From the NCBI GenBank assembly GCA_963820525.1, contig CAWGAA010000001.1, positions 2,752,001 to 2,816,000 on the forward strand: a stretch of 64,000 bases of DNA, given 5' to 3'. Below are positions 40,925-60,278 of the stretch, piece by piece. The notes under the pieces were generated by a model. That model was not told where the DNA came from. It saw only the letters and a program-made list of their open reading frames with translations, and did not search any database. Source of the DNA: an uncultured Spirochaetota bacterium. GTDB taxonomy: Bacteria; Spirochaetota; Spirochaetia; SZUA-6; Fen-1364. Made by a program: the position numbers and the translations under genes. The stretch's first letter is position 1. Each line of letters starts with the position of its first letter.

Positions 40925-41029
40925 GGGAGGTAGCCTCCTTGGTTGGATGATGAGAACTCGCACGGGCAAAAAGTTATCATCGCGCATGCCAGCCGAACAT
41001 GGACTGTTCAGCACAATTCCATGGAGTTT

Positions 41030-44406: not shown

Positions 44407-44558
44407 ATTTTACCAGATGCCGAAAGCACCCTCAATCGAGCGGGGGCTTGCTTGTTAAACGATTACAGCCTATTCCTTAATAAGAAAACTCGTAATTAAA
44501 GTTTGCTTATAGAAGTCGCGGCCGATCCTGATTACTATTTTTCCCGATCAATCGAGTT

Positions 44559-44605
44559 CACCATGAATATCCTTCTTGCAATGGATGATTTTCATGGTGT
44601 ATCAT
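44559..44605 (+). promoter_or_regulatory. Promoter enclosed by an inverted repeat, probably leaderless transcript
   Basis: CACCATGAA (44559-44567)/TTCATGGTG (44591-44599); TTGCAA-N18-TATCAT ending 6 nt before ATG 44612; no SD. Confidence 0.45.
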
Positions 44606-44611
44606 AGGGCC

Positions 44612-45772
44612 ATGGTAGAGCGCGCTTTTATACTCGATAAATTGAAGGTGGCCCTGTCGCGCAGTCGCGTCGTCGTACTGGCCGGGCCGCGCCAGTGCGG
44701 CAAGACGACGCTGGCACGGCAACTTCTCAGCGAGGATTCGGTCAACTACTTCGACCTGGAGGATCCTACCGGCCTTGCTCGACTGGATGAGCCAATGACC
44801 GCGCTCGGACATTTGCAGGGCCTGGTAGTGATCGACGAGGTGCAGCGGCGGCAGGATCTTTTCCCCGTTTTGCGGGTTCTGGCAGATCGTCGGGACAACC
44901 CCGCCCGTTTTCTGATTCTGGGCAGCGCTTCGGGCGACCTTCTGCGTCAGACTTCGGAGAGCCTGGCGGGGAGAATGGAGCGCGTGACAATCAGCGGCTT
45001 TTCGCTGCGGGAGTTGGGCGCAGAAGCGGAACAAACCTTATGGCTGCGCGGCGGTTTCCCGCTCTCCTACCTGGCAGGCAGCGAAGCCGATAGCGCGGAA
45101 TGGCGGAAGAGCTTTATCCAAACCCTGCTTGAACGTGATTTCCCGCAATGGGGCGTCCGCGTGCCTGCCGTGGCCTTGCAGCGCTTCTGGACAATGCTCG
45201 CGCACTATCATGGACAGACCTGGAACGCGGCCGAACCAGCCCGGGCGCTGGGTGTGAGCGAATCCACCGCCCGCCGCTATCTCGATCTGCTGACGGACGC
45301 CTTCCTTATCCGGCAGTTGCATCCCTATTATGCCAACATCAGCAAACGGCAGGTCAAGGCCCCAAAGGTCTCCGTGCGCGACAGCGGGCTTTTGCACCAG
45401 CTTCTCGGCATCAACACGCTGAAGGAACTGCTGAGCCATCCCAAAGTCGGCGCCTCATGGGAAGGGTTTGTTATCGAGCAGGTATTGATGACGGAGCCGC
45501 ATGACGAAGCCCTCTTCTGGGCCACGCATCAGGGAGCGGAGATCGACCTGATCCTGAGGCGTGGCAGCGAGCTTTTGGGCGTAGAGTGCAAGCGGACCGA
45601 CACTCCACGCATGACCCCGTCCATCCGCATCGCCCTTGAAAATCTTGGGCTTGCGCGGGTGGCCGTGCTCTACCCCGGGACGAAGCGTTTTCCAATTACG
45701 GAACGGGTGGAAGCCGTGCCTCTTCAGACGATGGTCAAAGGTATTTCGCTTTTCGAGGGGGGCGAGTCATGA
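44612..45772 (+). CDS. AAA_14 ATPase with DUF4143 domain
   Basis: GPRQCGKTT, IDEVQ, LGSAS, ESLAGR, RGGFP, DSGLLH, EIDL..VECK. Confidence 0.9.
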   Translation: MVERAFILDKLKVALSRSRVVVLAGPRQCGKTTLARQLLSEDSVNYFDLEDPTGLARLDEPMTALGHLQGLVVIDEVQRRQDLFPVLRVLADRRDNPARFLILGSASGDLLRQTSESLAGRMERVTISGFSLRELGAEAEQTLWLRGGFPLSYLAGSEADSAEWRKSFIQTLLERDFPQWGVRVPAVALQRFWTMLAHYHGQTWNAAEPARALGVSESTARRYLDLLTDAFLIRQLHPYYANISKRQVKAPKVSVRDSGLLHQLLGINTLKELLSHPKVGASWEGFVIEQVLMTEPHDEALFWATHQGAEIDLILRRGSELLGVECKRTDTPRMTPSIRIALENLGLARVAVLYPGTKRFPITERVEAVPLQTMVKGISLFEGGES

Positions 45773-45788
45773 GTTTGGGCTTTGAACG

Positions 45789-46406
45789 CTATCGCGGCGA
45801 TTGCTTGAAAAGCCCCTGAGCGAGCAGCCCTAGATAAAAAGAAGCCATCTGACGCGGCGTGAATGCCCGGGGGTGGTCCATCCACCAGAAGGCAAGGCCC
45901 ATGAGGATGGAGGTCAAGACGCGGGTTGCTAGGGGCAGGGGGATGGAGAGGTGCTCCTCTCCAACAACCCGCAACCTGCTCTCTTGGAGAAAGTCGTCAA
46001 CAAAAGCCTCCATCTGTTCCAGCAGTATCGGGCCTGCCGCTCCTGATATCAGGGGGCGGAAGATTTTCTCATGACGGTGGACCATCTCGAAGAAAGTGGA
46101 AACTCTCACGAGCACCCTGTCCGGGTTGGCAGAGCCGGGGGGAGCGGACGCGTCGATGCGGGCAAAGAAATCACCCAGGAGTGAGGCCAGACCTCTATCC
46201 AGAAGATCCGAGGTGCCCTCGAAATGTCGATAAAAAGTGGCGCGATTCACGCCCGCGCACCTCGCGATTTGAGCCACGCTCACCTTTTTCATCCCTTGCA
46301 CCGCGCAGATCTCGATGAACGCCTCGACAAGAGTATTTCTGGTCCTGCTGGAGCGATTGTCCAAGGCTTGGGGGCGGGCCGCGCCTGTCCGGCGTACCGG
46401 CTTCAC
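45789..46406 (-). CDS. TetR/AcrR family transcriptional regulator
   Basis: VSVAQIARCAGVNRATFYRHF HTH. Confidence 0.88.
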   Translation of the reverse strand: MKPVRRTGAARPQALDNRSSRTRNTLVEAFIEICAVQGMKKVSVAQIARCAGVNRATFYRHFEGTSDLLDRGLASLLGDFFARIDASAPPGSANPDRVLVRVSTFFEMVHRHEKIFRPLISGAAGPILLEQMEAFVDDFLQESRLRVVGEEHLSIPLPLATRVLTSILMGLAFWWMDHPRAFTPRQMASFYLGLLAQGLFKQSPR

Positions 46407-46451
46407 ATTTCCTCCATAAAGCGTTGCAGATGCGACAGTTTTTGCCGGATC

Positions 46452-46466
46452 TGTTGCCTGGCAACA
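46452..46466. promoter_or_regulatory. Probable TetR operator between divergent genes
   Basis: Perfect TGTTGCC-T-GGCAACA palindrome; a weaker related copy near 46423-46436. Confidence 0.5.
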
Positions 46467-46556
46467 AGGCCTCTTTCGCTGACAGCGCGCATCTACCTCA
46501 CTATAGTCCTGCCATGAACGTCACACAACATGACGGCGCATAACCAGGGGGAAGGA

Positions 46557-47234: not shown

Positions 47235-47254
47235 GCTGAGCGGGCCAAGTCTCT

Positions 47255-47639
47255 TAAGGGGATCAGCTCTATTGAAGAGGGCAATCGGTTTCTTCGGGCT
47301 GTATTCACGGAGAAGCTCAACAAAAAGCTGGCTGTTCTTCCTGTTTCACAGACCAACTTTCACCACCTCGTGGACCACAGACTTGATCTGCGGAGGATGC
47401 TTTGCTGGGAAGAACTACACAGCGTTAGCCATGACCGGGTGGTAAGACACCGTAGCCTTTTGTATCAGATCCTTCGGGACAACCGCCCAAGGCCAAGACA
47501 CAAGGATCATGTGATTGTTCAGGGCTGGTTGGATGGCTCTTTGCATATCTATTTCAAGGGCAAGGAGCTGAAGGTACAGAAAGTGACGGACATTTCCAGG
47601 TAAGAGGTCTGATGGGGACATTTCTAATGAGTCTGGACA
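47255..47639 (+). mobile_element. Remnant (3' end and right terminus) of an ISNCY/IS1202-group insertion sequence
   Basis: Reads KGISSIEEGNRFL..FTEKLNKKLAV...DLRRMLCWEELHSVSHD...DGSLHIYFKGKEL; repeated GGACATTTC subterminal motifs (47588, 47616) and an end in ...GGACA. Confidence 0.7.
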
Positions 47640-47845: not shown

Positions 47846-49822
47846 ATGGAGATGATGAGCGCAACCAAGAAAGCTACAACCTCAAAGTCGTCAAAGATTG
47901 CCTCGGGCTCATCTACAAAAGCTCGTAAGATCACTTTGAGGCCTTTGTCATCACCCCTAAAGGTCAAATCAACTTCCGTATCTGACTCCCATAGGTCCAT
48001 CATGGTGATTTCCGAGAACGGCAAGGAAGTCCGGCTACTTCTACACCGTTTTGCACTCGTCGGGCCCAGCGACAAGATCTTGTTGGACTCGGCACAAGCC
48101 TCCCGAATTTTTGTTGAGTCTGCGGATCCATCTAGAAAGGCCATACCCGTTTCGCCGCACTTTGAGAAAAGGTCAACTTTACGCTTGGGAGCAAGAGACT
48201 ATTCGATTCTCGTGAAGGAAATAACCACTCCAAGCGACCTCAAGGAATACGAGTATCTAGAGGGCTTTCACTATAAGACTTCCTCTGCCATCGTTACTGA
48301 CGAAGATGAGCCGAGCAAAAGCGGCCTCAATGTTGGTGGAAGAAAAGCCATACTTATCGCCTACATCCAAGTTGGCAAGCGCATGATACCTGCCGGGTAC
48401 ATAGATCTCCAAATGCCTTTGCTAATGGTAAAGCCAAGACACGAGCTCTTTAACAACGGCTTTTTCCACCCTGATCGCGATATCTCTTGGGATACATGGG
48501 ATATCAAGAGCATGAGGAAATACGTAAATCTGATTGTTAGGATTGCAAGAATAGTGACAAGCCCCGATCTTAGGGGCTTAGGTCTTGCACGCATAATAAT
48601 CGATGCTGCTAAAGACTATGCCAGAGAACGGTGGCATGTCTATGGCAAGTCTCCACTCTTCATGGAAATCTCAGCTGAAATGCTCAAGTACATGGACTTC
48701 GTGACATCTGCTGGAATGCATTTTGTCGGTAACACCGAAGGAAATCTTTCGAGAGTTCACAAAGATCTACTTCAAATGCAGAGAGGCCAGAAACTCACTT
48801 TTGGGATTATGACACTTCAGAAAAAGTATCTCACGAACTTAAGGCATCTATCGGAAAGTCTACACATCTCTTTTCCAGAGGTGCTCGATAGACTGAAGGC
48901 ACTTACTAAAAACTCTAGCGAAAAAGAGCTTCGATCAAAACTGAATAAATTGAGTGGTCAAGAATGGTTCCTATTCAAAAGAGTGCTCAGATTCCCTATT
49001 CCATATTTTATATGTGGCCTAGATGATGCGTCCGAATCATTTGTACAAAAACACTCACTAACCCCTCCAAGCAAGACTACCCAAAACAAGACATTTCAAT
49101 CTGCAAGGATTGGACTTAAGGATATTAGAGCTACCTCGACATACGAGATCCCAGACAGTGAGCAAGCTCGCGCGATACGTGACTGTTTTGGACTTGATGG
49201 GAATACTTTGAAGGTATCTCTCGTCGGACCTGTCACAATAGAGGCCTCGGGGGGAAACATCATTCTGATTACGGGTCCAAGCGGAAGCGGAAAAAGTGTA
49301 CTTTTGCGAGCAATCGCAGATGACAGTGAGACGAAACTAATTCATACCACATATATAAAAACCGTTGACAAACCATTCGTAGTTGGTTGGCTGACCGAAA
49401 TTAATAGTGATAAACCCATTATTGAATACTTCAGTGGTATTTGGGGAATGGAATCCTCTATTTCTGCATTAAATCAAGCAGGATTGTCCGAAGCATTTGT
49501 ATATCTGAGGCCATATAAACTCTTAAGTAGAGGACAACAATATCGTGCGCGTCTAGCTGCGCTTAGCCTTGGCTCGGCTAACGTTTGGCTTATGGATGAG
49601 TTCTGCGCAGACCTTGATCCCTTCACTGCCCGAATTGTATCAAATAATTTGCGGAAGCACGTTGTGAGAACTGGAAGGATCGCGATAGTTGCCGCAGCAA
49701 ACAACGCTCACTACATAGACGCGTTGATGCCCAACAGGATCATCTACCTTAGGCACAACGGCCGTTGCGAGGTATTTAAATATAAGGAATACATAGATGA
49801 GTTTCGTATCAACGCAAGCTGA
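47846..49822 (+). CDS. GNAT acetyltransferase - ABC-type ATPase fusion (COG2401-like)
   Basis: YLEGFHY; RIARIVTSPDLRGLGLA (acetyl-CoA motif A); GPSGSGKS, LSRGQQYR, WLMDEFCADLD; no TM segments and no permease neighbour. Confidence 0.8.
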   Translation: MEMMSATKKATTSKSSKIASGSSTKARKITLRPLSSPLKVKSTSVSDSHRSIMVISENGKEVRLLLHRFALVGPSDKILLDSAQASRIFVESADPSRKAIPVSPHFEKRSTLRLGARDYSILVKEITTPSDLKEYEYLEGFHYKTSSAIVTDEDEPSKSGLNVGGRKAILIAYIQVGKRMIPAGYIDLQMPLLMVKPRHELFNNGFFHPDRDISWDTWDIKSMRKYVNLIVRIARIVTSPDLRGLGLARIIIDAAKDYARERWHVYGKSPLFMEISAEMLKYMDFVTSAGMHFVGNTEGNLSRVHKDLLQMQRGQKLTFGIMTLQKKYLTNLRHLSESLHISFPEVLDRLKALTKNSSEKELRSKLNKLSGQEWFLFKRVLRFPIPYFICGLDDASESFVQKHSLTPPSKTTQNKTFQSARIGLKDIRATSTYEIPDSEQARAIRDCFGLDGNTLKVSLVGPVTIEASGGNIILITGPSGSGKSVLLRAIADDSETKLIHTTYIKTVDKPFVVGWLTEINSDKPIIEYFSGIWGMESSISALNQAGLSEAFVYLRPYKLLSRGQQYRARLAALSLGSANVWLMDEFCADLDPFTARIVSNNLRKHVVRTGRIAIVAAANNAHYIDALMPNRIIYLRHNGRCEVFKYKEYIDEFRINAS

Positions 49823-51194
49823 AAAGTTTGCAGCGGTTTTCGATAGATCTCCTTATCAGTCCACTGATCCGATCGTTAAAATTCAGTACGTTCAAAAGGG
49901 CAATAATGTTGTTTTTGGTCGAACTCTATCAGGCGAGAACTATGACAAACTAATCTACCTCGGCAAGGTTTACGAGAATACCGCCGGGAAAAACTACCTT
50001 AGTTCAGACGCTTGGCTGGATGTTGGCTACCCGCACGTAATCTATATTACGGGAACGCGAGGAAGCGGGAAGAGCTTTGACTTAGGCGTCTTGATCGAAG
50101 GCATTTCCGAGCTATCTAATCCATCAACAGCGCAGAACAACGTCCAGCCTATCTGCTCGATAGTAATTGATACGCAGAGCCAATTCTGGACTCTAAACTA
50201 TACGCCAAACCCGGCTGTCAAGGAGAACAAGGAGCAACTAGCCGAACTTAAGAAATGGAATATTAGTCCCAATTCTCTGAAGCATTGCAGGCTTTATATT
50301 CCTCCCTCAACCGAGAGAATAACAAACACTGAAACCATATTCCAGATTCGAACATCCGACGTACGACATGAAGAATGGTGTGCTTTAATCGGTGAGCAAA
50401 TATACAGTCCTCAAGGGCATGTCCTTGGCCAAGCTCTTGAGGATCTTTCTGGAAAGGCCTATTCGCTTGAAGATCTGATCTCGTATGTTGCAAATGGAGA
50501 CAATTGGGATAATGTTCCTGAAGTCTCTCGAAATGCAATCGTCTATAAGCTTGAGGGTTACCGTCGAACAGGGCTTTTCAGTGCAAAAGGAATCGACATT
50601 TGCACGCTACTTTCACCTGGTCAGTGTTCAGTATTTCTTTTGCGGGATCTTAGGAACGAAGACAAAGCCCTAATCACTTCTCTGATAGCACGCCAACTTT
50701 CAAGCATCTTGGGTGCTCACCATAAAAAGCTCAAAGTCAGCAAATTCTTCGAAAGAAAGGAAGAGGACGACGGACTTCCAAATACAGTTTGGATGTTTAT
50801 AGATGAGGCTCATGTGGTTGCTCCAAACGGTTCAGTGTCTCCTGCCACCAATGCTCTTATAGATTATGTAAAGCGTGGTAGAGATGCAGGACTGTCCTTG
50901 GTAATGGCCACGCAACAACCCTCTGCTGTTGATGATAGAATATTGAGCCAAGTCAATATCACATTCTCGCATAGACTTACATTTCAAAATGACATAAGTG
51001 CTGCGATAAACCGAATACCTACTAAGCTTCTAAAGGACTTGAAATATGCAGGAAGAGATATAACAGATTTTGGCGACATGCTTCGGTATCTCGAGGCTGG
51101 TGAATGTTTCTTGGGCGATCACAACACTAGCAGAGCTGTCTTGGTTTCTATTAGGCCAAGGGTGACTCCTCATGGTGGTTATAACCCAAGCTAA
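49797..51194 (+). CDS. HerA/FtsK-superfamily ATPase (DUF87-like)
   Basis: PHVIYITGTRGSGKSF, VIDTQSQFW, MFIDEAH, KRGRDAGLSLVMATQQPS. Confidence 0.85.
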   Translation: MSFVSTQAEKFAAVFDRSPYQSTDPIVKIQYVQKGNNVVFGRTLSGENYDKLIYLGKVYENTAGKNYLSSDAWLDVGYPHVIYITGTRGSGKSFDLGVLIEGISELSNPSTAQNNVQPICSIVIDTQSQFWTLNYTPNPAVKENKEQLAELKKWNISPNSLKHCRLYIPPSTERITNTETIFQIRTSDVRHEEWCALIGEQIYSPQGHVLGQALEDLSGKAYSLEDLISYVANGDNWDNVPEVSRNAIVYKLEGYRRTGLFSAKGIDICTLLSPGQCSVFLLRDLRNEDKALITSLIARQLSSILGAHHKKLKVSKFFERKEEDDGLPNTVWMFIDEAHVVAPNGSVSPATNALIDYVKRGRDAGLSLVMATQQPSAVDDRILSQVNITFSHRLTFQNDISAAINRIPTKLLKDLKYAGRDITDFGDMLRYLEAGECFLGDHNTSRAVLVSIRPRVTPHGGYNPS

Positions 51195-52374
51195 CCCATA
51201 TCTCACAATTAGTCGTAAAATTGGCTACTCTGTCGGCCTTGAATCACTCAACGAACGTGTCTTTGAGCTTGTAAAGCTCTACGATACTGAAAAAGGGCTT
51301 TCCTTTGCTTCATTTACCAATCTTGTAGAGAAGACATATGCTCGCAAGAATGCTGTGGAACATTTTGCCAATTTTTATGGTACACTTAATCTTGTTAGGC
51401 TTGTCGGAAGAGATATTGAGCCGCTTTTCAGATTAGACACTCTTGCTATTCTACGCAGACTCTTCCTTGATGACGAACCAAAATTCTTACTATGTCAACG
51501 AATCATTCTGACCCTGCTAATCATTGAGGCAGACGGGGATGTATTCCTTAATGGCCTCTTCGCTGATTTCAAGCCAAACGAGATGAAGACAAAGCTCGAA
51601 GCGATGTCCTTCACAAAAATCCAGCGTCTACAGACTGTATTTCCGACGAAAGCCTTGTTAGCGCAAATGGCTAGCATAATAAACATCAAAAACCAAACTC
51701 AGAAGAATGCAATTTCAGATGAAAAGCTTGGTCGCTTCGAAAAACGTAAAATGCCACTTGAGATGGGAAAAAGAACTACAAGCCTAGATACTTCAGTTTA
51801 TTTGACGCAAAACATCTCTGAAGACTACCTTGACAAGACCAGCAAGACAAGAAAGGGATGGGCACAAGACTTATTGCTGTTTAAAGGAGAGAAGCGAACG
51901 GCCATAGGGGACAAACTGTTGAGCTTTCTATTTGAGAATATAGTCTCCACCGACATTGAACGCAGTTGTATACTTTATTGGGGCTATAAATCTGATCTAG
52001 ACCGTATTCGAGTTGACCCCTCAAAAATCAGTGCTATTTCCTTCGAAGAATGGGATCTCATCTCTCAGATTTCAAAGGCCTATAAAGGGGAAACTTCCGT
52101 GGGGACACAGAAACTCTCCGATGATCAATTGTACAAGCTGTTCTTAAAAATGCATCAACTTTATAGAGAAGCGTCCTCTTCACGGGGATCTATTCGAAAC
52201 AGTTTACCCTTGTATATCGCTGAGCCAATTCTCGCTGCGTATTGCGTTGCAAAGAACATTCGGTTGCCCGACATAAACGCCTATCTAAAGAAAGAGTTCA
52301 CTCGACCAGTTCGACGTATCCAAAGAATGATAATCCGTGGTACCCTCGGAGCGCTTTACTTCATGAAGGAATAA
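51172..52374 (+). CDS. Hypothetical protein, possibly tandem winged-helix DNA-binding
   Basis: 400-aa ORF overlapping/abutting both neighbours; wHTH-like segments (EHFANFYGTLNLV; TRKGWAQDLLLF...RTAIGDKLL). Fold is inferred. Confidence 0.6.
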   Translation: MVVITQANPYLTISRKIGYSVGLESLNERVFELVKLYDTEKGLSFASFTNLVEKTYARKNAVEHFANFYGTLNLVRLVGRDIEPLFRLDTLAILRRLFLDDEPKFLLCQRIILTLLIIEADGDVFLNGLFADFKPNEMKTKLEAMSFTKIQRLQTVFPTKALLAQMASIINIKNQTQKNAISDEKLGRFEKRKMPLEMGKRTTSLDTSVYLTQNISEDYLDKTSKTRKGWAQDLLLFKGEKRTAIGDKLLSFLFENIVSTDIERSCILYWGYKSDLDRIRVDPSKISAISFEEWDLISQISKAYKGETSVGTQKLSDDQLYKLFLKMHQLYREASSSRGSIRNSLPLYIAEPILAAYCVAKNIRLPDINAYLKKEFTRPVRRIQRMIIRGTLGALYFMKE

Positions 52375-52375
52375 T

Positions 52376-53260
52376 ATGGCTGTACACATCACCAAAGAGT
52401 TTCTCAACGATCTAAGAGAGGCCGATGATCTAAGGTTTGTCAGACAAGTATTGAATCACACGATAGACCGTGACGGTGATTTTGCAGACGACAAGGATGA
52501 TCATAGATATAAGGACATCGATGATGCTTGGATACGCTGCGTCAGTAAAGGCGCAACTGCTTTCCGGGTAATATTCATAAGAAAAGGTTCAGACATATAT
52601 CTCTATAGAGCTGGACATCATGACATTGAAGATCATTTGGCGCCTGCGCGCTCCTTTTCCTCGTCTATTACACTGGCAGAAGGCCCAATCAAACAGCCTC
52701 AAGAATATAAAGAGCAAGTTCCTCAGCAGATTTTTCTTAAGAACTCTGAACCTGCCTTCATAAACAAGTTCCTGATAAGCATGTATCACTTGAGGCATCA
52801 TGAGATCTACATTGTGTCTCCTTTTCTGGACTTGCCGATTCTATCTAGCAAGCATCACTTTGGTAGATTCCTTGACAAAGCAAAGGAAGAGGGAACCGAT
52901 GTTATTTTGATCACGCTACCTCCAAAAAATGACGATGAGATTACTGTTTTTAGAGACTTGGAGTTACGAGATATTCGAGTATTCTTTCTTCCTAGACTGC
53001 ACACAAAGCTATATATCTTTAATGTGGACCTTGAATCGAGAACTTTCTATCAGCGCGGTGTCTTCGGAACAGCTGTACTCGGATCCTCCAATTTGACATG
53101 CCCGGGTCTTGGTTTCGATGAACTGCAGCCTAATGAAGAGCTTTGTTCCACGTTTCACACCGATAGAATTGACGAATTGAAGGATTATGTTCTAAAGTTG
53201 ATGTTTCGCTCTCAGGACTTTACAGATTTTATGCAAAGAAGAAGGAGACAGCAACGATGA
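52376..53260 (+). CDS. RelE/ParE-like N-terminal domain fused to a phospholipase D-family nuclease domain
   Basis: N-term VHITKEFLNDL...FRVIFIRKGSDIYLYRAGHHD; C-term IYIVSPFL, LHTKLYIF, GSSNLT..G...NEE. Confidence 0.75.
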   Translation: MAVHITKEFLNDLREADDLRFVRQVLNHTIDRDGDFADDKDDHRYKDIDDAWIRCVSKGATAFRVIFIRKGSDIYLYRAGHHDIEDHLAPARSFSSSITLAEGPIKQPQEYKEQVPQQIFLKNSEPAFINKFLISMYHLRHHEIYIVSPFLDLPILSSKHHFGRFLDKAKEEGTDVILITLPPKNDDEITVFRDLELRDIRVFFLPRLHTKLYIFNVDLESRTFYQRGVFGTAVLGSSNLTCPGLGFDELQPNEELCSTFHTDRIDELKDYVLKLMFRSQDFTDFMQRRRRQQR

Positions 53261-54396
53261 TTGCTCCGGAGACATTTTATAAAGCTGCCAATCTGAGGGA
53301 CAATCCTTTTCGAACAAACCCTGCCGCCGAGGCAGATCCTCGAAGAGGCATCTGGATAGGGTATCTGAATGAAAGAAACACGTTGACGAAGTATCTCCAG
53401 CGTTCTTTGTCTGACAACGTTGGGAATATCAACTTTGTAATGATTTACGGCGAATTGGGTAATGGCAAATCGCACGCTCTGCTTTGGTCTCAGCATTTGG
53501 TGCTTGTTGCAGAAAACGAGAAATACAACAGTGTTGCATATTATATTCAAAGCCTAAAGCGCGACAAAGGCAAAATGTCATTTGTCTCAGCGTTCAATGA
53601 AGACATTGTTGGCAAGTCCAATCTTGCGGGAGATCTCCTAATCTATAAACAGTTTGTCTCTGAATGCATAATCGAGTATAAGCGAGATAACGCGCTCGGA
53701 CCTGATGTAAGCAATGATAAGGTGGCTGAGCGACTCATTCCATCAATGGATATGCGTAATACGCTTACAAAAATTCTGAAATGTGAAACCGAGGACAATA
53801 TAAGAGGCCTCTTAGGCACTGACACAGACTACTCTGCGATGCTGCTCTTCTGCCAAATTGTGAATCTGTTTGTTCACCCTTATGAACTTGCAGCAGGCAA
53901 GAAGAGATACAAGAAATGCGTCTATCTCTTCATTGACGAGATGGACGTTCTAGGTGAAGTCCCTCCCAAAGAAGCCAGAGATGTTAACGCCTTGTTACGA
54001 CATATCTATGACCTTTGCCCAAATTGCTTCTTCCTTGGGCTTGGCTTCACTGCAACTGCCGCTGAGCTTGGGGTTCTTTTCGATGAATTTGTTCTTTCTA
54101 GAGTTTCGAAGCAAATCACTCTGCAGTTCATGCAGCCTGTAGAAGCTCAGGACTTCATTCGCCAAATACTCAATACAGTTCGAATTGATAACAAGAAGCA
54201 CATTGATTATTTCCCATTCACGGAAGACGCGGTTGGGACAATAGTCTCACGAATGGTGTCAATAACTCCACGAAAAATCGTTAATCAAATGCTGCAGATA
54301 CTCGAAGAATGTCGCCTAGCAGATCTTGATCCGTCAAAGGCTCCGATCTCTACAACCCAACTCGATGAAAAGGAGATATGGGAGATGGTGGATTGA
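53257..54396 (+). CDS. AAA+ P-loop ATPase
   Basis: NLRDNPF, IYGELGNGKSH (Walker A), LFIDEMD (Walker B), VLSR, YFPFT, TPRKI. Confidence 0.8.
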   Translation: MIAPETFYKAANLRDNPFRTNPAAEADPRRGIWIGYLNERNTLTKYLQRSLSDNVGNINFVMIYGELGNGKSHALLWSQHLVLVAENEKYNSVAYYIQSLKRDKGKMSFVSAFNEDIVGKSNLAGDLLIYKQFVSECIIEYKRDNALGPDVSNDKVAERLIPSMDMRNTLTKILKCETEDNIRGLLGTDTDYSAMLLFCQIVNLFVHPYELAAGKKRYKKCVYLFIDEMDVLGEVPPKEARDVNALLRHIYDLCPNCFFLGLGFTATAAELGVLFDEFVLSRVSKQITLQFMQPVEAQDFIRQILNTVRIDNKKHIDYFPFTEDAVGTIVSRMVSITPRKIVNQMLQILEECRLADLDPSKAPISTTQLDEKEIWEMVD

Positions 54397-55256
54397 GCAA
54401 GAAAATTGTCGGCGCAAAGACGAAGGCTCAGAAAGTCCTCGATGGCTTTGCGCAGTCAGAATGTCTCCCCATAGTGCAATCCATATCATCCATGCTAATT
54501 CGACTCCAAACAGCGTTTGACCTCCTTGGCAAATCGATTATGCACACTGACCAGAACTCTTCTCCTGTCATAGATCCTTCCACCATCCTTGAAGCAATTG
54601 AAAGCATGAAGCTTTCAGAGTTTTCTCTTGATAAAGATGCTGTAGATAATGCTCGCAAATGGGCAATTTTCCAACTTGCCACGACCTATAGCAACCTTGG
54701 AGAGTTGATTCGACAACACTGTGCCGAGCGAGCGATAAAGATAGACGGCGGCCCACGATCTTTCATTCTTGCTAATTTTCTGCATATTGTAATCGATTTT
54801 GAATCAAATGCCGTGTTTATAGAAGACAAAAAACTCGAGCGACTATCCACTTCCGCTATTCTTAAGTTGATCGATGCGGAAATTTCGAATGAAAACAAAA
54901 GAAGCCCGAGCTCGAGTGAATTCCTACTTGCTTGTTATCGGGCATATAGCTACCTCATAAAGGCTTCTGCTCAAGAGTATGGTACTCCTATGAGAGTTCG
55001 CGATGTTTACAAACAGATTATTATTGCGAGTCAGCCGGAGAAATTTTGGAAGAACCCCAATCGCGCAAACCTATTTGAATATGATGAACATCTCTTCAAG
55101 CGAGATCTTGTACGACTCTTTCTTGAGAACTCTTCGGCCCTTCCAACTGGTGAAAGTATTGAGCTATTGCCTACTGCCTTTCCTAAACAAGGGATTCCAA
55201 TCCCTTTGCCCGAAGGCACAAGATACATCGGTCATATTGCCTTCCGCAGAGCATAA
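54393..55256 (+). CDS. Hypothetical protein associated with DUF2791 ATPases
   Basis: TTGA overlap with the upstream stop (alternative ATG 54378); helical N-half; C-terminal QPEKFWKNP...YDEHLFKRDL. Confidence 0.6.
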   Translation: MSKKIVGAKTKAQKVLDGFAQSECLPIVQSISSMLIRLQTAFDLLGKSIMHTDQNSSPVIDPSTILEAIESMKLSEFSLDKDAVDNARKWAIFQLATTYSNLGELIRQHCAERAIKIDGGPRSFILANFLHIVIDFESNAVFIEDKKLERLSTSAILKLIDAEISNENKRSPSSSEFLLACYRAYSYLIKASAQEYGTPMRVRDVYKQIIIASQPEKFWKNPNRANLFEYDEHLFKRDLVRLFLENSSALPTGESIELLPTAFPKQGIPIPLPEGTRYIGHIAFRRA

Positions 55257-55258
55257 CA

Positions 55259-56566
55259 ATGCTTGAGCTTTCTATTGAGACTGCTAGAAGGATCATAAGC
55301 CATCTAAAATCGGGAACTACTCCTATCGATTGTGTTCAACATCTCAACGTTGGCAACGAGAAGTGGTATTCTGCTGCAGAACGGCAACTTAAGGATATTT
55401 CAGTTGATGGGGATTCTTTGGTTAGATTCATAAACGGCTATTACGGCGACGGTAAGACGCACTTCCTTGGAATGCTAAGGGCGATAGCTTTTTCGAACAG
55501 GTGGGCGGTGTCTTATGTCTCAGCTGAGAACACTCCATTACACAAATTTGATGTCGTTTATTCTGAAATCATTCGGAACCTTAGCATTCCCCGTTCTTTG
55601 ACACTTCCAGAATGGATTGCCAAAGAAGATTGTAGAGGTGCACCAGCAATACTTGGAGCGCTTTTCTTTCGCTTTTACTTTGAGGCATACAGATTATCAG
55701 ACAACGCTGGCTTACGAAAAGAAAGAGTAATCGAAACTATTCGACATAGGGTAGCGACATTTTGTTCCCAACCGGATATCTCGGAGCCTCTCGGAGTCGC
55801 GATTAGGTACTATTTCGAGGCTATAATAAAGGGAGACTCCTCAACCGCTCATTCGCTTTGTGAATGGCTTGAAGGAATGGATGCCCGCGTTGACGGATTG
55901 CCTGTTCTGAAGAGGATCGATAAGCTTCGATCCAGAGACGCAAGTCGGGGACTATCGATAATCACCAAGGCCTCGGGCATCTCTGGAGTTCTTATACTGA
56001 TCGATGAGGCCGAGCGGATCATGGAACAGTCCCGATCTATACGCAACAAGAGCTACGGTGTTCTTAGAGATCTCTTAGATAATGCGGATGACCATGGCGG
56101 AATGACCTCAACCATCTATTATGTTGCTGCTACCCCGGAAATGTTTGAAACTGCAAGCGGTTTTGCTGAATACGACGCACTACGTTCGCGGCTTTCTAAC
56201 ATCGCTATCGCCTATGCCCCCGACTTAATAGATTGGCGCGGTACTCTTGTTAACCTAGTGAAGACCCCAATGAGTCCCGAGAACCTATCTTCTTTAGCGC
56301 GAAAAGTTATCGGAATCCACTCTATTGCCCGTCAATGGAATCCATCTTCTATCCTTTCTGAGGACTTGATCGATAAGATTATTGAAAAGGTAGTTGCTGG
56401 CGTCTTTTCATCTTCCAAGCCTCGTATAGTAACCTCTTTCTTCGCTAATCTGCTTGAGCTTCTGGAACAGAATAGAGAATATCCGCTAAACGATGGTATC
56501 GAAAGCGTATTGTCCTACATAGTGCCAATCCTCAAGACGAAGCCAAAAGCAAAGTCTTGGGAATAG
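55259..56566 (+). CDS. BrxD/DUF2791-like P-loop ATPase, paralog 1
   Basis: ARRIISHLKSGTTP..VG, RFINGYYGDGKTHF, VVYSEIIRNL, LILIDEAE, AATPE, YDALRSRL. Confidence 0.82.
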   Translation: MLELSIETARRIISHLKSGTTPIDCVQHLNVGNEKWYSAAERQLKDISVDGDSLVRFINGYYGDGKTHFLGMLRAIAFSNRWAVSYVSAENTPLHKFDVVYSEIIRNLSIPRSLTLPEWIAKEDCRGAPAILGALFFRFYFEAYRLSDNAGLRKERVIETIRHRVATFCSQPDISEPLGVAIRYYFEAIIKGDSSTAHSLCEWLEGMDARVDGLPVLKRIDKLRSRDASRGLSIITKASGISGVLILIDEAERIMEQSRSIRNKSYGVLRDLLDNADDHGGMTSTIYYVAATPEMFETASGFAEYDALRSRLSNIAIAYAPDLIDWRGTLVNLVKTPMSPENLSSLARKVIGIHSIARQWNPSSILSEDLIDKIIEKVVAGVFSSSKPRIVTSFFANLLELLEQNREYPLNDGIESVLSYIVPILKTKPKAKSWE

Positions 56567-56571
56567 ACCCA

Positions 56572-57699
56572 ATGATTTCAAACCAACTAAAGCTCAGGCG
56601 GAACATTCGCTACCTCAAGAGAGGCGTATTCCCGCCTGAAGACATTGAACAATTTACTTTTGGTCGCGAGCGTGAATTGGCTGTCATTCAGAAAAAGCTA
56701 TCCGAAGTAAAGGATGGTTGCTGTAGATCTCTCTTTATTCAGGGCGTGTACGGACGAGGGAAATCACATTTATTAAAGTCAATTGAGGCCTCAGGTCTAC
56801 AGAGAGGATTTGCTGTGGCTTGGGTTACAATAGACGGATATGCGCATGCCTTCAATCACCCAACTAGGTATCTGCATTCCATTTCGGAAAGCATTCGCTT
56901 TCCATCCAGTCCTTATCGAGGTCTTGCGGCCAACGCTCGTGCTTGGTTATCGGGCGACAAACGTGAGACCCTTCTTTCATATCTCAGAAGCTCTCGCAAT
57001 ACTTGGATGTCTTTTGCACTTCAATCAATTGCAAGAGATCATCCTTCGTTTCTCGAAAACCATTACAACAGCATTATTGAGAGTCGAGACCTCTTGGGCA
57101 AGAACGGTAAACAATGGTTTGAGCTGGTCGTAGAACGGCTAGATGATATTAGCCGTTTATGTAAGCTTGTAGGACACGGCGGAGTCATTTACCTTTTTGA
57201 TGAGATTGAATCAATCGCCACCCAATTGTCCACGATTAGGCAGAGGCTATTGTCCTATGAGTTTTTAAATATGCTTATCGATGAACGTCGACATGCCCAT
57301 AGCTTTCTTGCATTCGCGGCTACCCCAGATTTTGGAAATAAGATATTGGAAGATGTAGCAGCTATTTCAAACTATGAAGCTGATTATGCTGATGCATGCA
57401 GATTCATTAGGAAATGGATTTCTAACAGCGTAGACTGCATAAATATCAACAGGTTATCAAAAGACTGTCTCTTCCTTCTCTGTGAGCATATTCGAACTAT
57501 TCATGAGAAGGCGTATGAATGGAAATCAAACGGGGCAGTATCCTCGGAGAGCATTAGGACGTTGGTTAGCGAGTGTTTCGCAAAAAACCTTGGAACGAGA
57601 GAGATTGTCAGAACAGTCGTTCATCTTCTTGAGGTCCATGAGCAGCTCTCTCATACGCATTCTTCCAGTCATAGCAGACTGAACGACGAAATCAAATGA
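56572..57699 (+). CDS. BrxD/DUF2791-like P-loop ATPase, paralog 2
   Basis: IRYLKRGVFP..FTFGRERE, IQGVYGRGKSHLL, YLFDEIE, FAATPDF, IHEKAYEW. Confidence 0.78.
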   Translation: MISNQLKLRRNIRYLKRGVFPPEDIEQFTFGRERELAVIQKKLSEVKDGCCRSLFIQGVYGRGKSHLLKSIEASGLQRGFAVAWVTIDGYAHAFNHPTRYLHSISESIRFPSSPYRGLAANARAWLSGDKRETLLSYLRSSRNTWMSFALQSIARDHPSFLENHYNSIIESRDLLGKNGKQWFELVVERLDDISRLCKLVGHGGVIYLFDEIESIATQLSTIRQRLLSYEFLNMLIDERRHAHSFLAFAATPDFGNKILEDVAAISNYEADYADACRFIRKWISNSVDCININRLSKDCLFLLCEHIRTIHEKAYEWKSNGAVSSESIRTLVSECFAKNLGTREIVRTVVHLLEVHEQLSHTHSSSHSRLNDEIK

Positions 57700-57714: not shown

Positions 57715-58020
57715 CTCAAGAAGTCTATTAAGATATTTGTGTCACTTATTGCTATCCGCATGCTCTTCGCTCAACTCCGCTTCGGCATCAGAAATTGTCA
57801 AGATAGACAAAGCTGCCGCTTTGCTTATGCTTCTGAGACTGACCTATATAAGAACCGTTTGAATCTTGATGGTTTCTCAATCCCGAGGCATCCTCCTGGC
57901 TCCTTTTTCTGCCAGCCATACCTCTCAAACTCGCGCATGAGAGCACTGTAGCTGCATCGGAAAGAAGCGCGTGCGCATATGCCCGAAATGGAATTGCCTG
58001 AATTGAGATGCCGTATTTAG
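57715..58020 (-). pseudogene. Degraded ImmA/IrrE-type metallopeptidase C-terminus followed by the first codons of a PIN-domain toxin
   Basis: Frameshifted pieces KYGISIQAI.FRA / GWQKKEP...EKPSRFKRFLYRSVSE / ISKAAAL (stop at 57742), overlapping ATG 57761 MRIAISDTNILIDF that breaks off at the operon end. Confidence 0.65.
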
Positions 58021-58038
58021 ACTCGTTTATATGTCCCC

Positions 58039-59701
58039 TTACCCCTTCACCTCCAGTATCTCCTCAGGTATATGTGTAATAAGCTTCACCAGTTCCTCGA
58101 ATCTAAAGTCAATGTCCATCACGGCATACATCTCCTTCTTGGAGTTGTAGATCGGCATCGCCGCCGTCATGATCAGCTTGTCCGTGTACTTGGAGAAAAA
58201 GAGATCCGAGTAATACGGCTCTCCGGTCTTCAGGACCGCGACAAACCAGTCATGCTTCCTGAAGTCCTTGTTCATGAGGTTTCTGAAAAGACTCTTCTCC
58301 CCGCGCTGGGTGTGCGCCTGGGAGATGCGCAGGCCCTCCAGGTTTGTCACGGCAAGAAGCTGGATGGAGGCCTCCCGCGTCACCACGTCATGGAGGTAGC
58401 TCTCCATGCGCTCTGCATCCAGGGAGCGCACCTCCTCTGAGACGGAGATGTGCTGGGCGATGTGGCGGGCCTTTTCAATCGCGGCCTCTTTAGCTTTCTG
58501 GAAGTCGGAGACGAAAAGCGAGGGCAGGAAATGCTTTGCCTGCGCCACAAGCTCATCAGCGGAAATGCTTGTGGTTCGGCCTTGGGCATACTGCTCAGTG
58601 ACCCAGGCGTTGATGTGCTTGATGCCGGGGTGGCGCTTGACCACCGGCTCCATGGCCCTGCCCGTGAGCTGCGGGATGTTTTTGTTTATCCATTGCGCAA
58701 TTCCCGCCATGCCGGATTTGTCCGTCACCATCACGCGGATGGGCCTGTTCAGAAGAGCCTCAGTATCAAAAATGTTATAGATCTCCGGGTTCTTGAGGAT
58801 GCCGTCCGCGTGGATGCCCGCGCGGGTCACGTTGAACTCGACCCCACAAAGGGATAGTTGGGTGCAACGGGAGCCTGGATCTCCGTCCGGAAATAGTCAG
58901 CAATCTCCGTGATGACACGGGTGTTCATGCCATCCGGCGTTCCCTTAAGCCCTATGTACTCCACCACCGCGGCTTCAAGCGGCGGGTTTCCCGTGCGCTC
59001 GCCAAAGCCCAGCACCGTGGCGTTTAGCGCGGAACATCCGTACAGCCAGGCGGATGTGGCGTTCACGTGCACCTTGTGAAAATCGTTGTGGCCGTGCCAC
59101 TCCAGAAGCAGAAGCCGTAGATGTCCGCGCGCGTAATATCTTCAAAGTGACAGCGCGGCCGTATGCCCTCCTCAAGCGCTGATTTCACAATGGCAAGGTA
59201 GTCTTCCATGACCTTGGCGCGGTTTGACTTGAACTTGAGAAACACGTGGTAGTCTGAGACAGAGGTGAGGATGCCCGTCTCCTTGAGGCCTAACCCCTTT
59301 ACTATAGACAGATCCTTTGCGTCAGCGCAAATCCATCCCGTCACCTCGGGGAACGGGTGTCCCAGGGCAAGGCAGGCCTCTACCGCCTGCGCGTCCCGCT
59401 TGGAGTACAGGAAGAACTCGCTTTATCTGATCACGCCCTTGGGGCCGCCCAGCTTGTGGAGAAGCCCAAAGATGAGGGCAATCTGCTCCGGGGCATACGG
59501 CGGCCGGGCCTGCTGGCCGTACCGGAAAGTGGTGTCCGTTATCCAGATGTCCTTGGGAGGGTTCAAAGGCACTTCCAGGCCGTCAAAGAGGATGCGCGGG
59601 ATATCGGAATAGGGGAATTGCTCCCGGTAGAGGTTGGGTTCCGCGGGAGATTCAAGGGGGAACGTGCGCCTGACAGGCAAAGGAGAGAAGGTGCTTTGCA
59701 T
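58039..59701 (-). pseudogene. Re-citrate synthase / LeuA-like DRE-TIM enzyme with C-terminal Cache-like domain, multiply disrupted
   Basis: EPNLYRE.FPY, DTTFR(Y)GQQ, RCHFEDITRADIYGF, EWHGHNDF, GERTGNPPLE, TRAGIHADG. Lesions: TAA at 59423-59425, frameshifting deletion at ~59108, frameshift at ~58840, D>Y at 59519-59521. Confidence 0.82.
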
Positions 59702-59846: not shown

Positions 59847-60278
59847 TCATGCTAGACCGCAAAAGCCTATCACTTTTTCAGCCAGCTCGCCCAAATCCTT
59901 CCGCGCCTCAGAAAGCGCATAGTCAAGGAACTCTGCCAGCGGATCTGTATCCCTCTCCCAGTATGGCTCAACAAAAGAGATGCCATATTTCTTTACCAAT
60001 CGGTCGAGAGCAACGGCGCAGACGAATACATCATCAATGTATCCCGCTGGGCCGTAGATCTTTTCCGGAAGCAGGTCGTTCGGTACAATCAAATAGCCCA
60101 GGACGCAGAGAATAGTCATTCTGTCTTCCGCTTGTAATTCCGGCCGGTCAAGGACGCCGGACAAAGCCTTGAAGATCGCGGGGAGGTAATAAATGTATTC
60201 CTTGATAGAACCGTGATAGGCGTTGATCTCCGTTTCCAGAAAATCGTGATAATCCTCAGGCATTTGTGCTTTTGCCAT
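59847..60278 (-). CDS. YkvA/DUF1232 family protein
   Basis: LGYLIVPNDLLPE..YGPAGYIDD; start overlaps the helicase stop. Confidence 0.8.
   Translation of the reverse strand: MAKAQMPEDYHDFLETEINAYHGSIKEYIYYLPAIFKALSGVLDRPELQAEDRMTILCVLGYLIVPNDLLPEKIYGPAGYIDDVFVCAVALDRLVKKYGISFVEPYWERDTDPLAEFLDYALSEARKDLGELAEKVIGFCGLA

Follow-up and report, generated by a model that had tools for sequence, protein, structure and literature searches.

We analysed a 64,000-nucleotide stretch of DNA (hereafter the window) from an uncultured Spirochaetota bacterium (NCBI GenBank assembly GCA_963820525.1, contig CAWGAA010000001.1, positions 2,752,001 to 2,816,000 of the forward strand), which between positions 47846 and 57699 carries an operon-like run of eight genes, here termed g1 to g8. 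An earlier reading of the letters alone (the sequence-only reading) had proposed these genes as a candidate undescribed defence system. Our analysis makes it likely that the operon serves as a defence against mobile elements, and indicates that it is apparently an unnamed, rare and mobile candidate system of the HerA-capture/BREX-related kind, not a categorically new one. The eight genes are as follows:

47846..49822, + strand: g1, GNAT-ABC ATPase (open reading frame, ORF, of 658 aa)
49797..51194, + strand: g2, HerA (ORF of 465 aa)
51172..52374, + strand: g3, putative multi-winged-helix protein (ORF of 400 aa)
52376..53260, + strand: g4, RelE-fold domain plus phospholipase D (PLD) domain (ORF of 294 aa)
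53257..54396, + strand: g5, AAA+ ATPase (ORF of 379 aa)
54378..55256, + strand: g6, protein with no Pfam, PADLOC or NCBIfam match (ORF of 292 aa)
55259..56566, + strand: g7, BrxD-like protein (ORF of 435 aa)
56557..57699, + strand: g8, BrxD-like paralogue (ORF of 380 aa, TTG start)

By these coordinates, adjacent genes overlap by 26, 23, 4, 19 and 10 nt or are otherwise separated by gaps of 1–2 nt. In 1-kb windows, G+C content is 0.417–0.460 over positions 48000–57499, compared with 0.58–0.65 at 40000–46499 and 0.56–0.58 at 58000–59499 in the flanks. Because its G+C lies so far below that of its surroundings, the eight-gene block is compositionally foreign and probably horizontally acquired. 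The ORF coordinates and G+C windows thus agree with the original description of eight co-oriented, tightly packed and AT-richer genes.

The gene order recurs well beyond this contig. A profile of g1 relatives yielded 25 loci from one-genome-per-species contigs, and a second profile yielded 71 metagenome loci, for a total of 96 (given below by L numbers). In 42 of these 96 loci, g1–g5 are all present and in the same order as in the window; 18 others, mostly truncated contigs, retain at least g1 and g2, and the remaining 36 are mostly distant ABC relatives in other contexts. The genes g6–g8 follow g1–g5 in order in seven of the 42 (L017, L028, L059, L061, L064, L065 and L066); 30 extend at least 3 kb beyond g5 without g6–g8, and five lie on contigs that end too early to judge, so that the add-on is found in 7 of the 37 loci where its presence can be judged. 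Identical HerA rows in L025/L045, L023/L049 and L053/L054 probably represent the same DNA in two collections, and the non-redundant count of five-gene-only loci is 28 (L053 and L054 being partial loci). In a quick maximum-likelihood tree of HerA, whose careful search is unfinished (52 rows, 49 of them different, with L017 left out on account of its split g2 ORF), a branch with a Shimodaira–Hasegawa-like approximate likelihood ratio test (SH-aLRT) value of 96 sets apart the window and the six other eight-gene loci, along with three loci that are too short to classify. Because g6–g8 follow in only seven of the 42 g1–g5 loci and on a single branch of the HerA tree, these patterns are consistent with a conserved unit that is the five-gene core g1–g5, to which g6–g8 were added in a single gain. 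The notion of an eight-gene system therefore holds as far as recurrent order is concerned and fails for the conserved unit, which comprises five genes. A chance mosaic is ruled out by this recurrence (g1–g5 in 42 of 96 loci, all eight genes in seven other contigs). Clustering all ORFs of the 25 genome loci revealed no other conserved neighbour of the cassette, the further clusters being antisense shadow ORFs within it.

Exceptions within the genome set were L010 without HerA, L014 without g5, and L020 with a g1 fragment only. The first two are reduced forms: the Spirochaetia locus L010:10001-15119 consists of g1, g3, g4 and g5, and L014:10001-15262 of g1–g4 on a contig that continues. The only eight-gene locus among the 25 genome loci, L017:9917-19913, has nearly every gene split into two or three ORFs, reflecting either decay or assembly indel errors.

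Carriers of the cassette include Alpha-, Beta- and Gammaproteobacteria, Binatia and a Spirochaetia metagenome-assembled genome, and because they span phyla with cross-phylum sister pairs in the HerA tree, their sequences indicate that the cassette spreads horizontally. It is also rare, since the g3 family is so small, with 174 representatives at E ≤ 0.001 and 122 at 1e-30 among 1.84 billion cluster representatives. Identity to the window copies ranges over 52–76% for g2, 29–69% for g1, 23–45% for g3 and 23–28% for g6 (with one partial g6 match of 49%, in L017), so that by sequence the putative recognition parts appear to evolve fastest and g2 slowest. A scan of 141 flanking ORFs from 24 loci found neighbours that differ from locus to locus. 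Among them were integrases (L005, L019), transposases (L004, L018), two TniQ genes (L015) and the conjugation genes TrbI/CagX/VirB8 (L004, L019), as well as PIN (L001), ParE (L010, L018), AbiEi (L019) and GIY-YIG (L023) proteins, an SNF2 helicase with a methyltransferase (L014), a two-HKD PLD protein (L015), a Prim-Pol (L007) and an S24 peptidase (L013).

We then assigned the individual proteins by profile, fold and conservation, with published sources cited here for the parts consulted. The HerA assignment of g2 was upheld by Pfam DUF87 (5.5e-7), a near full-length match to the PADLOC mad8 model (4.1e-19) and matches to HerA models (to 4.8e-14), with Walker A (G86..K92 S93) and Walker B (D336 E337) residues present in 53 of 53 sequences. 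Its score against the NCBIfam anti-phage HerA model is 33.5 bits, compared with a cut-off of 850, and it weakly matches repair HerA models; tblastn against the phage collection gave no match. For g5, the window copy has no Pfam match at 0.01 and a PADLOC match to IetA only (0.0057), and the best PDB sequence match is the TnsC AAA+ ATPase at E 0.1. Its relatives match AAA_16 and AAA_22 in 22 of 22 cases, as expected of the AAA+ protein originally named, and BrxC_BrxD in 16 of 22 (best 7.5e-5), and K71, H73, D227 and R282 are invariant (44/44). From these profiles, the last core gene is predicted to encode an AAA+ ATPase of the ORC/Cdc6/STAND class.

The third core gene, g3, had been left as unknown, and by sequence it still has no match in Pfam, NCBIfam, PADLOC or the PDB sequences; its modelled fold gives leads. 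The AlphaFold2 (AF2) model (predicted local distance difference test score, pLDDT, 83.5; predicted template modelling score, pTM, 0.86) comprises three winged-helix-like modules, each of the helix-helix-helix-hairpin form. Structural comparison with VIA-align placed FokI first (Z 7.7, 187 residues aligned), closely followed by BrxA (Z 7.5, 167 of 199), and then by the BrxA-family structure 3bhw (Z 7.1), BpuJI (6.5), N.BspD6I (6.2) and SspB (6.0), with Foldseek returning nothing at E ≤ 0.001. In the Atlas language-model feature search, the top named cluster was that of FokI recognition domains (0.88), and RE_AlwI and BpuJI_N clusters scored 0.85–0.87. Because VIA-align and Atlas, two independent weak methods, agree on one class, g3 is most likely, on the strength of its modelled fold, a multi-winged-helix DNA-recognition subunit resembling FokI, BrxA and SspB.

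The AF2 model of g4 (pLDDT 83.7) resolves into a RelE/YoeB/ParE fold at residues 1–87, a low-confidence linker, and a single-HKD PLD domain at residues 115–290. Foldseek matched g4 to SauUSI (3.1e-7) and NgoAVII R (2.8e-6), and also to Nuc, Zucchini and BfiI, and VIA-align of the PLD domain gave SauUSI (Z 17.8), NucT (15.5), Nuc (15.1), BfiI (14.6) and NgoAVII R (14.5). Among its relatives, 16 of 21 match Pfam PLDc_2 and 14 of 21 match RE_NgoFVII. Residues 1–87 align with RelE, YafQ, YoeB and ParE at Z 9.4–8.0, covering the whole toxins, and with the CRISPR-associated RelE-type protein Cami1 at Z 8.2. The g4 profile gave no matches (0) among PDB sequences, and the RelE assignment rests on fold because Pfam ParE_toxin matches only one of 21 relatives, at 0.03. 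The PLD motif of the window copy is intact (H209-x-K211, G236-S237-x-N239), and across 43 family members the RelE-like residues D42, H43, R54 and R64 are found in all 43 and R78 and H82 in 42. The PLD residues vary more, with H209 in 28 of 43 (N in 14, Q in one), K211 in 29 and N239 in 27. Copies with a degenerate PLD (L004, L005, L018, L021–L023, L025, L041–L045, L047, L049 and L050) carry N or Q for the His of HxK and mostly R for the Lys, while retaining the GS of GSxN and the RelE-like residues; judged from these substitutions, the PLD of this sub-lineage is probably inactive. The suggestion of a RelE-PLD effector thus stands as to its domains, by fold, Z scores and the HxK motif; with 15 of 43 relatives having lost the catalytic His, the PLD cannot serve as universal effector. 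Neither domain looks like a universal effector, and the pair gives the impression of a primary arm with a second one in reserve.

The add-on genes g7 and g8 are BrxD-like, as proposed. g7 matches Pfam BrxC_BrxD over its full length (2e-50) and PADLOC BrxD (3.7e-38) and SngB (4.9e-29); g8 matches BrxC_BrxD (2.9e-28), AAA_16 (3.5e-8) and SngB (3.5e-16). They score 128 and 61 bits, respectively, with the NCBIfam BREX_BrxD model (cut-off 350) and are therefore not equivalogs, and with 24% identity over about 400 residues (E 3e-16) they are paralogues, g8 being the more divergent. Treating g5, g7 and g8 as three paralogous BrxD proteins is tenable at superfamily level only, the hhalign alignments of g5 with g7/g8 being Walker-sized at a probability of 11–26%. 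In the clade of L059–L066, three of four g8 orthologues bear a C-terminal sigma-70 region-4 helix-turn-helix (Sigma70_r4), located at L059:8152-9849, L064:8907-10610 and L065:10431-11840; the L064 copy matches the C-terminus of MzaA from the Mza system (6.9e-21). BrxD has been classed as an ORC-Cdc6 AAA+ protein, with a suggested role in type 2 BREX of loading a helicase partner or activating it (PMC12839542).

No match was found for g6 in Pfam, PADLOC or NCBIfam, and its PDB profile search gave two rows at E 0.37. A word-seeded search recovered only g6 itself (1 of 972 candidates), a single-protein metagenome scan gave 141 pattern matches with 0 confirmed, hhalign against g3 gave a probability of 0.6%, and Atlas gave unnamed clusters only. 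Homologues of g6 do occupy the equivalent position in six other eight-gene loci, at 23–28% identity and with 34 invariant columns.

The lead gene g1 matches Pfam ABC_tran (8.1e-10) and, below the cut-off, Acetyltransf_1 (0.0022), and its relatives are labelled in public sources as an "ABC-type ATPase with predicted acetyltransferase domain", several carrying PF00583 or PF13508. Taken with the conserved motifs, this substantiates its reading as a GNAT fused to an ABC ATPase: the expected GNAT motif is seen in motif A, with R243 and G244 kept in 58 of 58 g1 family members, as are the Walker A residues G477/G480/G482/K483, and the signature (S561/G563/Q564) and Walker B (D584/E585) residues are kept in 57 of 58. 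All five of the P-loop NTPases counted in the sequence-only reading (g1, g2, g5, g7 and g8) in fact have intact and family-conserved Walker A and B motifs. The ABC domain of g1 is a single nucleotide-binding domain (NBD) whose best PDB sequence matches are the NBDs of ABC transporters and ABC-F proteins (Lsa 5.1e-13, PoxtA 1.7e-12), with an NCBIfam ABC-F match at 2.4e-11.

Relatives of g1 revealed a recurrent fusion to an ASCH domain. In the second eight-gene clade (L059–L066), g2 is 68–71% identical to the window copy and g2–g5 stay close, but g1 is only 28–31% identical; because of this disparity, the lead gene appears by sequence to vary independently of the other cassette genes. The complete g1 proteins of L061, L065 and L066 (757–767 aa) end in a C-terminal ASCH domain (E 5.6e-15, 1.2e-11 and 2.1e-11, respectively). 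More distant cassettes (L053/L054 and L056; g1 33–35% and g2 38–39% identical) are ordered as a possible GNAT-ABC-ASCH protein, HerA, an unknown protein of about 410 aa, a short PLD protein (188–196 aa) without RelE, and an AAA+ ATPase, which is followed in L056 by a BrxC_BrxD-like protein and in L053 by a KAP-type NTPase matching PDC-S49. In L058:1552-11732, a GNAT-ABC-ASCH protein (Acetyltransf_1 1e-5) directly precedes DrmE (DrmE_C 6.4e-58), DrmA (PADLOC 6.2e-157) and DrmB (4.9e-50), with no methyltransferase within the 12.8-kb contig, which ends about 1.1 kb past DrmB.

Characterised ASCH proteins hydrolyse N4-acetylcytidine (ac4C; PMC6972931) or erase it from tRNA (bioRxiv 10.64898/2026.02.27.708502); NAT10, a writer of ac4C, is an ATP-dependent acetyltransferase (cited in bioRxiv 10.64898/2026.02.27.708502). 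The window g1 resembles TmcA/NAT10 in joining a GNAT and a P-loop ATPase in one polypeptide, with an ABC NBD as its ATPase. In TmcA and NAT10, the ATPase module paired with the GNAT is helicase-type. A literature search found no bacterial restriction system based on N4-acetyl-deoxycytosine, and in the sources it covered N4-acetyl-deoxycytosine in DNA turned up for plants only. The ASCH fusions and DISARM-like context are hints that lend circumstantial support to the idea of the GNAT as a self-marker.

Proteins of this type were also seen elsewhere. An ABC-ASCH protein of g1 type (721 aa; L055:9860-17173) lies about 1.5 kb 5' of phage terminase, portal and Mu-F-like genes, and the g1-type lead protein may also travel in prophages. 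A second family of about 630 aa combines a ParB-like N-terminus with one ABC domain (L073:4699-10056, L075:3706-8844 and L095:9410-19103), with a GNAT in L073; its neighbours are a type ISP enzyme in L073, an unknown protein and a BrxC_BrxD-like ATPase in L075, and a nearby opposite-strand type I restriction-modification system in L095.

We next compared the operon with named systems. Against PADLOC-DB 2.0.0 (2023), the eight proteins gave single-protein matches only (mad8, HerA, BrxD, SngB and a P-loop-level mad3), with none for g3, g4 or g6. Full-text searches found no published description of a GNAT-ABC, HerA and PLD gene set, the supplementary neighbourhood tables of PMC10853773 and PMC12839542 being outside their scope. 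The view that no named system fits as a whole is therefore sustained, as is the listed absence of methyltransferase, PglZ, TerB, DEAD/Lhr helicase, SIR2 and dnd/ssp genes, for the eight proteins in Pfam, PADLOC and NCBIfam at E ≤ 0.01. The likeness to BREX types 2/6 and Shango lies in g7 and g8, which belong to the BrxC_BrxD (DUF2791) family and match BrxD and SngB models. BREX membership was rejected, with no PglX/BrxX methyltransferase (whose place a PAPS reductase takes in type 4), PglZ, large BrxC (DUF499/DUF6079), PglW or BrxHI present and with g5, g7 and g8 only 379–435 aa long; so was membership of Shango, the SngB-like g7 and g8 being unaccompanied in the operon by SngA (TerB) or the SngC helicase. 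DISARM membership failed for want of DrmA or DrmB (DUF1998) in the window operon, both being found beside a g1 homologue in L058 only, and g4 shares the PLD fold of DrmC with no PADLOC DrmC match at 0.01. A HerA-type ATPase paired with an effector is likewise shared with SIR2-HerA, DUF4297-HerA and Mad7/Mad8 of MADS. The first two were rejected with no SIR2 or DUF4297 effector present and with g2 matching HerA models weakly (4.8e-14). MADS comprises mad1–mad8, including a methyltransferase, a kinase, the Mad3/Mad4 OLD-type ATPase-Toprim pair and the Mad7/Mad8 ATPase-nuclease module (PMC13662399), and was rejected because only mad8 (g2) and a mad3 stretch of about 30 residues at the P-loop of g1 match, with no other mad model.

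The closest likeness is to the published HerA/FtsK capture theme, in which the machine is brought to invading DNA by an Orc/Cdc6 ATPase together with rapidly evolving winged-helix proteins, and a nuclease then receives the DNA from a HerA motor (PMC10853773). The operon shares with it a HerA (g2), an Orc/Cdc6 AAA+ ATPase (g5, and the BrxD-like g7/g8), a nuclease effector and the mobile, sporadic nature of the operons; a subset of those systems also has a fast-evolving protein of two to four winged helices related to DndG, SspB and FokI, a likeness that for g3 is at lead level. The effectors differ, theirs being a PD-(D/E)XK restriction endonuclease (REase) plus an inactive REase inserted in Orc/Cdc6, and that of the window a PLD fused to a RelE-fold domain, with no REase family detected by sequence in the eight proteins (Pfam, PADLOC, NCBIfam), a search that a degenerate REase inserted in g5 could escape. 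A GNAT-ABC lead gene, present here, is not mentioned in the consulted part of that account (PMC10853773). The claim of an undescribed system accordingly stands as to its apparently being unnamed, but not as to a kind without precedent, since HerA, an ORC AAA+ ATPase, a multi-winged-helix protein and a nuclease are the HerA/FtsK capture theme.

With the BREX-related capture (BRC) system (PMC12839542), the operon shares a HerA/FtsK translocase, a GNAT, Orc/Cdc6 ATPases of the BrxC/BrxD class and, putatively, a BrxA-like tripartite DNA-binding protein. The effector of BRC as described there is PglZ, accompanied by DUF6079 (a large BrxC), a STAND NTPase and DUF4007, in many cases by TGT and in a subset by the GNAT. 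The operon instead has RelE-PLD as its predicted effector and a GNAT joined to an ABC ATPase, and its eight proteins gave no match to PglZ, DUF6079, DUF4007 or TGT (Pfam, PADLOC, NCBIfam). The best plasmid relative of g2 (28% identity) is on the Haloplanus plasmid NZ_CP098519.1 at 110316-118224 (L026). There, the order is an AAA ATPase, a 1363-aa "BREX system ATP-binding" protein, a hypothetical protein, a HerA-like protein, a GNAT and a hypothetical protein, followed by a PD-(D/E)XK nuclease and a helicase, and by analogy this locus looks BRC-like. The nucleases SauUSI, NgoAVII R/N and BfiI are the best matches to the single-HKD PLD fold at the C-terminus of g4, which, in contrast to them, lacks a B3 DNA-binding or helicase domain of its own and carries the RelE-fold domain instead. 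Like g4, the NgoAVII nuclease comes with separate ATPase subunits.

These comparisons suggest a working model whose steps are drawn from domains and context. Because the relatives of g2, g3, the C-terminal domain of g4 and g5 are DNA-directed and fit the published HerA/FtsK capture model, we apply that model to these four, and we consider it rather likely that the operon follows a HerA-capture plan in which g3 is the recognition protein and g4 supplies the effector. In such an arrangement, the fast-evolving triple winged-helix protein g3 would recognise DNA, the ORC-type AAA+ ATPase g5 and the HerA translocase g2 would load onto incoming DNA and reel it inward, and the PLD domain of g4 would cut what has been captured. 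The RelE-fold domain of g4 could act as a second effector, probably RNA-directed, that shuts down translation when restriction fails, in a manner comparable to Cami1. The lead protein g1 would be an ATP-coupled acyltransferase placing an acyl mark on host nucleic acid, most plausibly by cytosine N4-acetylation, and would thereby take the role held by methyltransferases in restriction-modification, BREX and DISARM. Finally, g6 and the BrxD paralogues g7 and g8 may add a further level of sensing or regulation, acquired a single time within the family, and, by analogy with BrxD, one guess is that g7/g8 load or gate the HerA machine.

The explanation that we regard as best, a horizontally acquired, ATP-driven and nucleic-acid-targeting defence of HerA/FtsK-capture type with g1–g5 as core and g6–g8 as accessory genes, has in our estimate roughly even chances of being correct. 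That g1 is a self-marking enzyme is a good deal more tentative, and is favoured because g1 is catalytically conserved, leads the operon, is repeatedly fused to ASCH and keeps company with DISARM genes without a visible methylase. The fullest version, in which g1 guided by g3 writes the mark (most plausibly N4-acetylcytosine in DNA), ASCH reads or erases it, HerA, ORC and PLD destroy unmarked DNA, and the writer replaced a methylase in a DISARM lineage, is unlikely when taken as a whole. We keep the chances of an acyl mark in DNA low, somewhere between unlikely and tentative, because ASCH activities concern RNA and the ABC domain resembles ABC-F. Several observations weigh against the favoured explanation. 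Published ASCH activities, in the sources consulted, concern free ac4C and tRNA and not DNA, so that an RNA target fits equally; the window g1 has no ASCH domain; its ABC domain is of transporter/ABC-F type and not of the SMC/Rad50/OLD type usual in DNA conflict systems; and in L058 a methylase may lie past the contig end, about 1.1 kb after DrmB. Replacement of the PLD catalytic His in 15 of 43 relatives makes DNA cleavage by those g4 proteins doubtful, the Z scores of 6–7.7, Atlas scores below 0.9 and null Foldseek result keep the g3 assignment at lead level by both tools, one locus does without HerA (L010) and one without g5 (L014), and many of the cassette flanks (141 ORFs, 24 loci) hold ordinary metabolic genes.

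Some of these same observations favour an abortive infection aimed at translation without a self-mark, in which g1 would be a regulated GNAT toxin or an RNA modifier with tRNA, aminoacyl-tRNA or the ribosome as its target, the RelE domain of g4 the main, ribosome-dependent mRNA cleaver, and HerA, g5 and g3 merely sensors of foreign DNA that switch the effectors on. GNAT toxins such as TacT and AtaT acetylate aminoacyl-tRNA, the RelE-like residues are kept in 42–43 of 43 relatives against 28 of 43 for the PLD His, the RelE-fold match spans whole toxins (Z 8–9.4) and includes Cami1 (Z 8.2), the ABC domain of g1 resembles ribosome-binding ABC-F proteins (NCBIfam 2.4e-11; Lsa, PoxtA), and the ASCH activities described in the consulted sources are on ac4C in tRNA. 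Yet RelE is not universal, the PLD proteins of L053 and L056 lacking it; for four of the five core proteins there are relatives that act on DNA; g1 leads the operon and is highly conserved without an antitoxin-like partner; and GNAT-ABC-ASCH stands with genes of DISARM, a DNA restriction system. We give this account a minor share of the probability, and a slightly smaller one to capture and restriction without any nucleic-acid mark. In that scheme the substrate of the GNAT would be a protein, belonging either to the complex itself or to a phage or plasmid, whose acetylation would regulate or neutralise, and self DNA would be spared by virtue of only entering or unusually replicating DNA being hit. 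The absence of ASCH from the window g1 agrees with such a scheme, as do the published HerA/FtsK capture model, which as described needs no modification (PMC10853773), and the versatility of GNATs, which mostly act on proteins or small molecules (PMC12839542); the repeated joining of g1 with ASCH, whose fold serves in reading or erasing modified bases, the sequence-recognition type of g3 and the DISARM-like context speak for a mark instead.

It is very improbable that the operon is no defence at all and instead serves a mobile element in DNA repair, segregation or maintenance, much as the archaeal HerA-NurA-Mre11-Rad50 operon serves in end resection. That double-strand-break repair operon does combine HerA, a nuclease and an ABC ATPase, g2 has its weak NCBIfam matches to repair HerA models, and some cassettes lie inside integrative or conjugative elements. 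The ABC domain of g1, however, is a single transporter-type NBD with no SMC/Rad50-type match beyond the P-loop region, carriers are scattered sporadically across phyla, the recognition subunit changes quickly, and the links are to BrxD, DISARM, BRC-like loci and defence candidates, with no element-specific neighbours conserved. The system might also have been named already, for instance in later versions of DefenseFinder or PADLOC, in journals sold by subscription or in supplementary tables; the system models compared date from 2023 (PADLOC-DB 2.0.0), so a more recent name is possible, but the full-text literature searches gave no description of GNAT-ABC with HerA and PLD, and the g3 family has only 174 representatives, and we think a prior name improbable.

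If protective against phages or plasmids, the operon preferred here as a HerA-capture-type defence would bring to the known repertoire a system of several ATPases in which an acetyltransferase fused to an ABC domain joins a HerA motor, a recognition subunit resembling those of type IIS enzymes and an effector with two heads, RelE and PLD, and its shared lead protein would connect HerA capture, BREX-related ATPases and DISARM. Of most interest are its GNAT-ABC(-ASCH) lead protein and the possibility that self is marked by acetylation, and this protein provides a handle on whether acetylated DNA or RNA lets bacteria tell self from non-self; were the acyl-mark reading true, this would be the first restriction-modification-like immunity with an acyl instead of a methyl or sulfur self-mark. 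The natural variants, with five or eight genes, with or without ASCH, with or without RelE, and with a degenerate PLD, offer a ready-made dissection of the essential parts.

Turning to the setting of the operon, the sequence-only reading had placed it behind one promoter and between debris of mobile elements and toxin-antitoxin genes. A consensus scan gave 15 promoter-like sites, compared with 17.7 ± 4.1 in shuffled sequence, and none on the + strand just 5' of g1, so that the scan does not single out such a promoter; one promoter for g1–g8 is plausible from the gene packing. Terminator-like sites numbered nine, against 8.6 ± 2.9 in shuffles. No toxin-antitoxin debris was found among the flanking ORFs, and the mobile-element part of the description is borne out by a transposase remnant at the operon edge, with matches at 27–31% identity in six plasmid records, where they carry the annotation ISNCY family transposase (tblastn, best E 1e-8). 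Flanking repeats, namely a 14-nt direct pair at 47106/58160 (13/14) and a 23-nt inverted pair at 47485/58565 (83%), are indistinguishable from chance, and there are no tRNA genes between 38000 and 64000. In an empty-site comparison, the left-flank DNA was absent from the 20 relatives searched except for one 59-nt match, and the insertion borders are not definable from it. The features around the operon are as follows:

44576-45772, + strand: DUF4143/AAA_14 ATPase, 398 aa, matching the PADLOC single-gene candidate PDC-S01 at 3.2e-90
47235..47600, + strand: C-terminal ~120 residues of an ISNCY-family transposase (remnant, from translation and tblastn against plasmids), at the upstream edge of the low-G+C block
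58039-59344, − strand: short ORFs with HMGL-like (homocitrate/isopropylmalate synthase) and post-HMGL pieces joined to a dCache sensor piece
59847-63054, − strand: 932-aa UvrD-type helicase fused to a PD-(D/E)XK nuclease, preceded by a DUF1232 protein

The DUF4143/AAA_14 ATPase lies 2 kb 5' of the operon in DNA of G+C 0.54–0.60. The short ORFs at 58039-59344 look like gene debris between two low-G+C stretches, the second of which (0.47–0.51) holds the UvrD/PD-(D/E)XK protein, encoded on the opposite strand with the operon 2.6 kb upstream. This protein matches the GajB helicase models of PADLOC (best 1.7e-75); no GajA was seen. It may be separate defence or repair cargo. The PDC-S01 match and the UvrD/PD-(D/E)XK protein, as neighbours of the operon, fit a defence-island setting.

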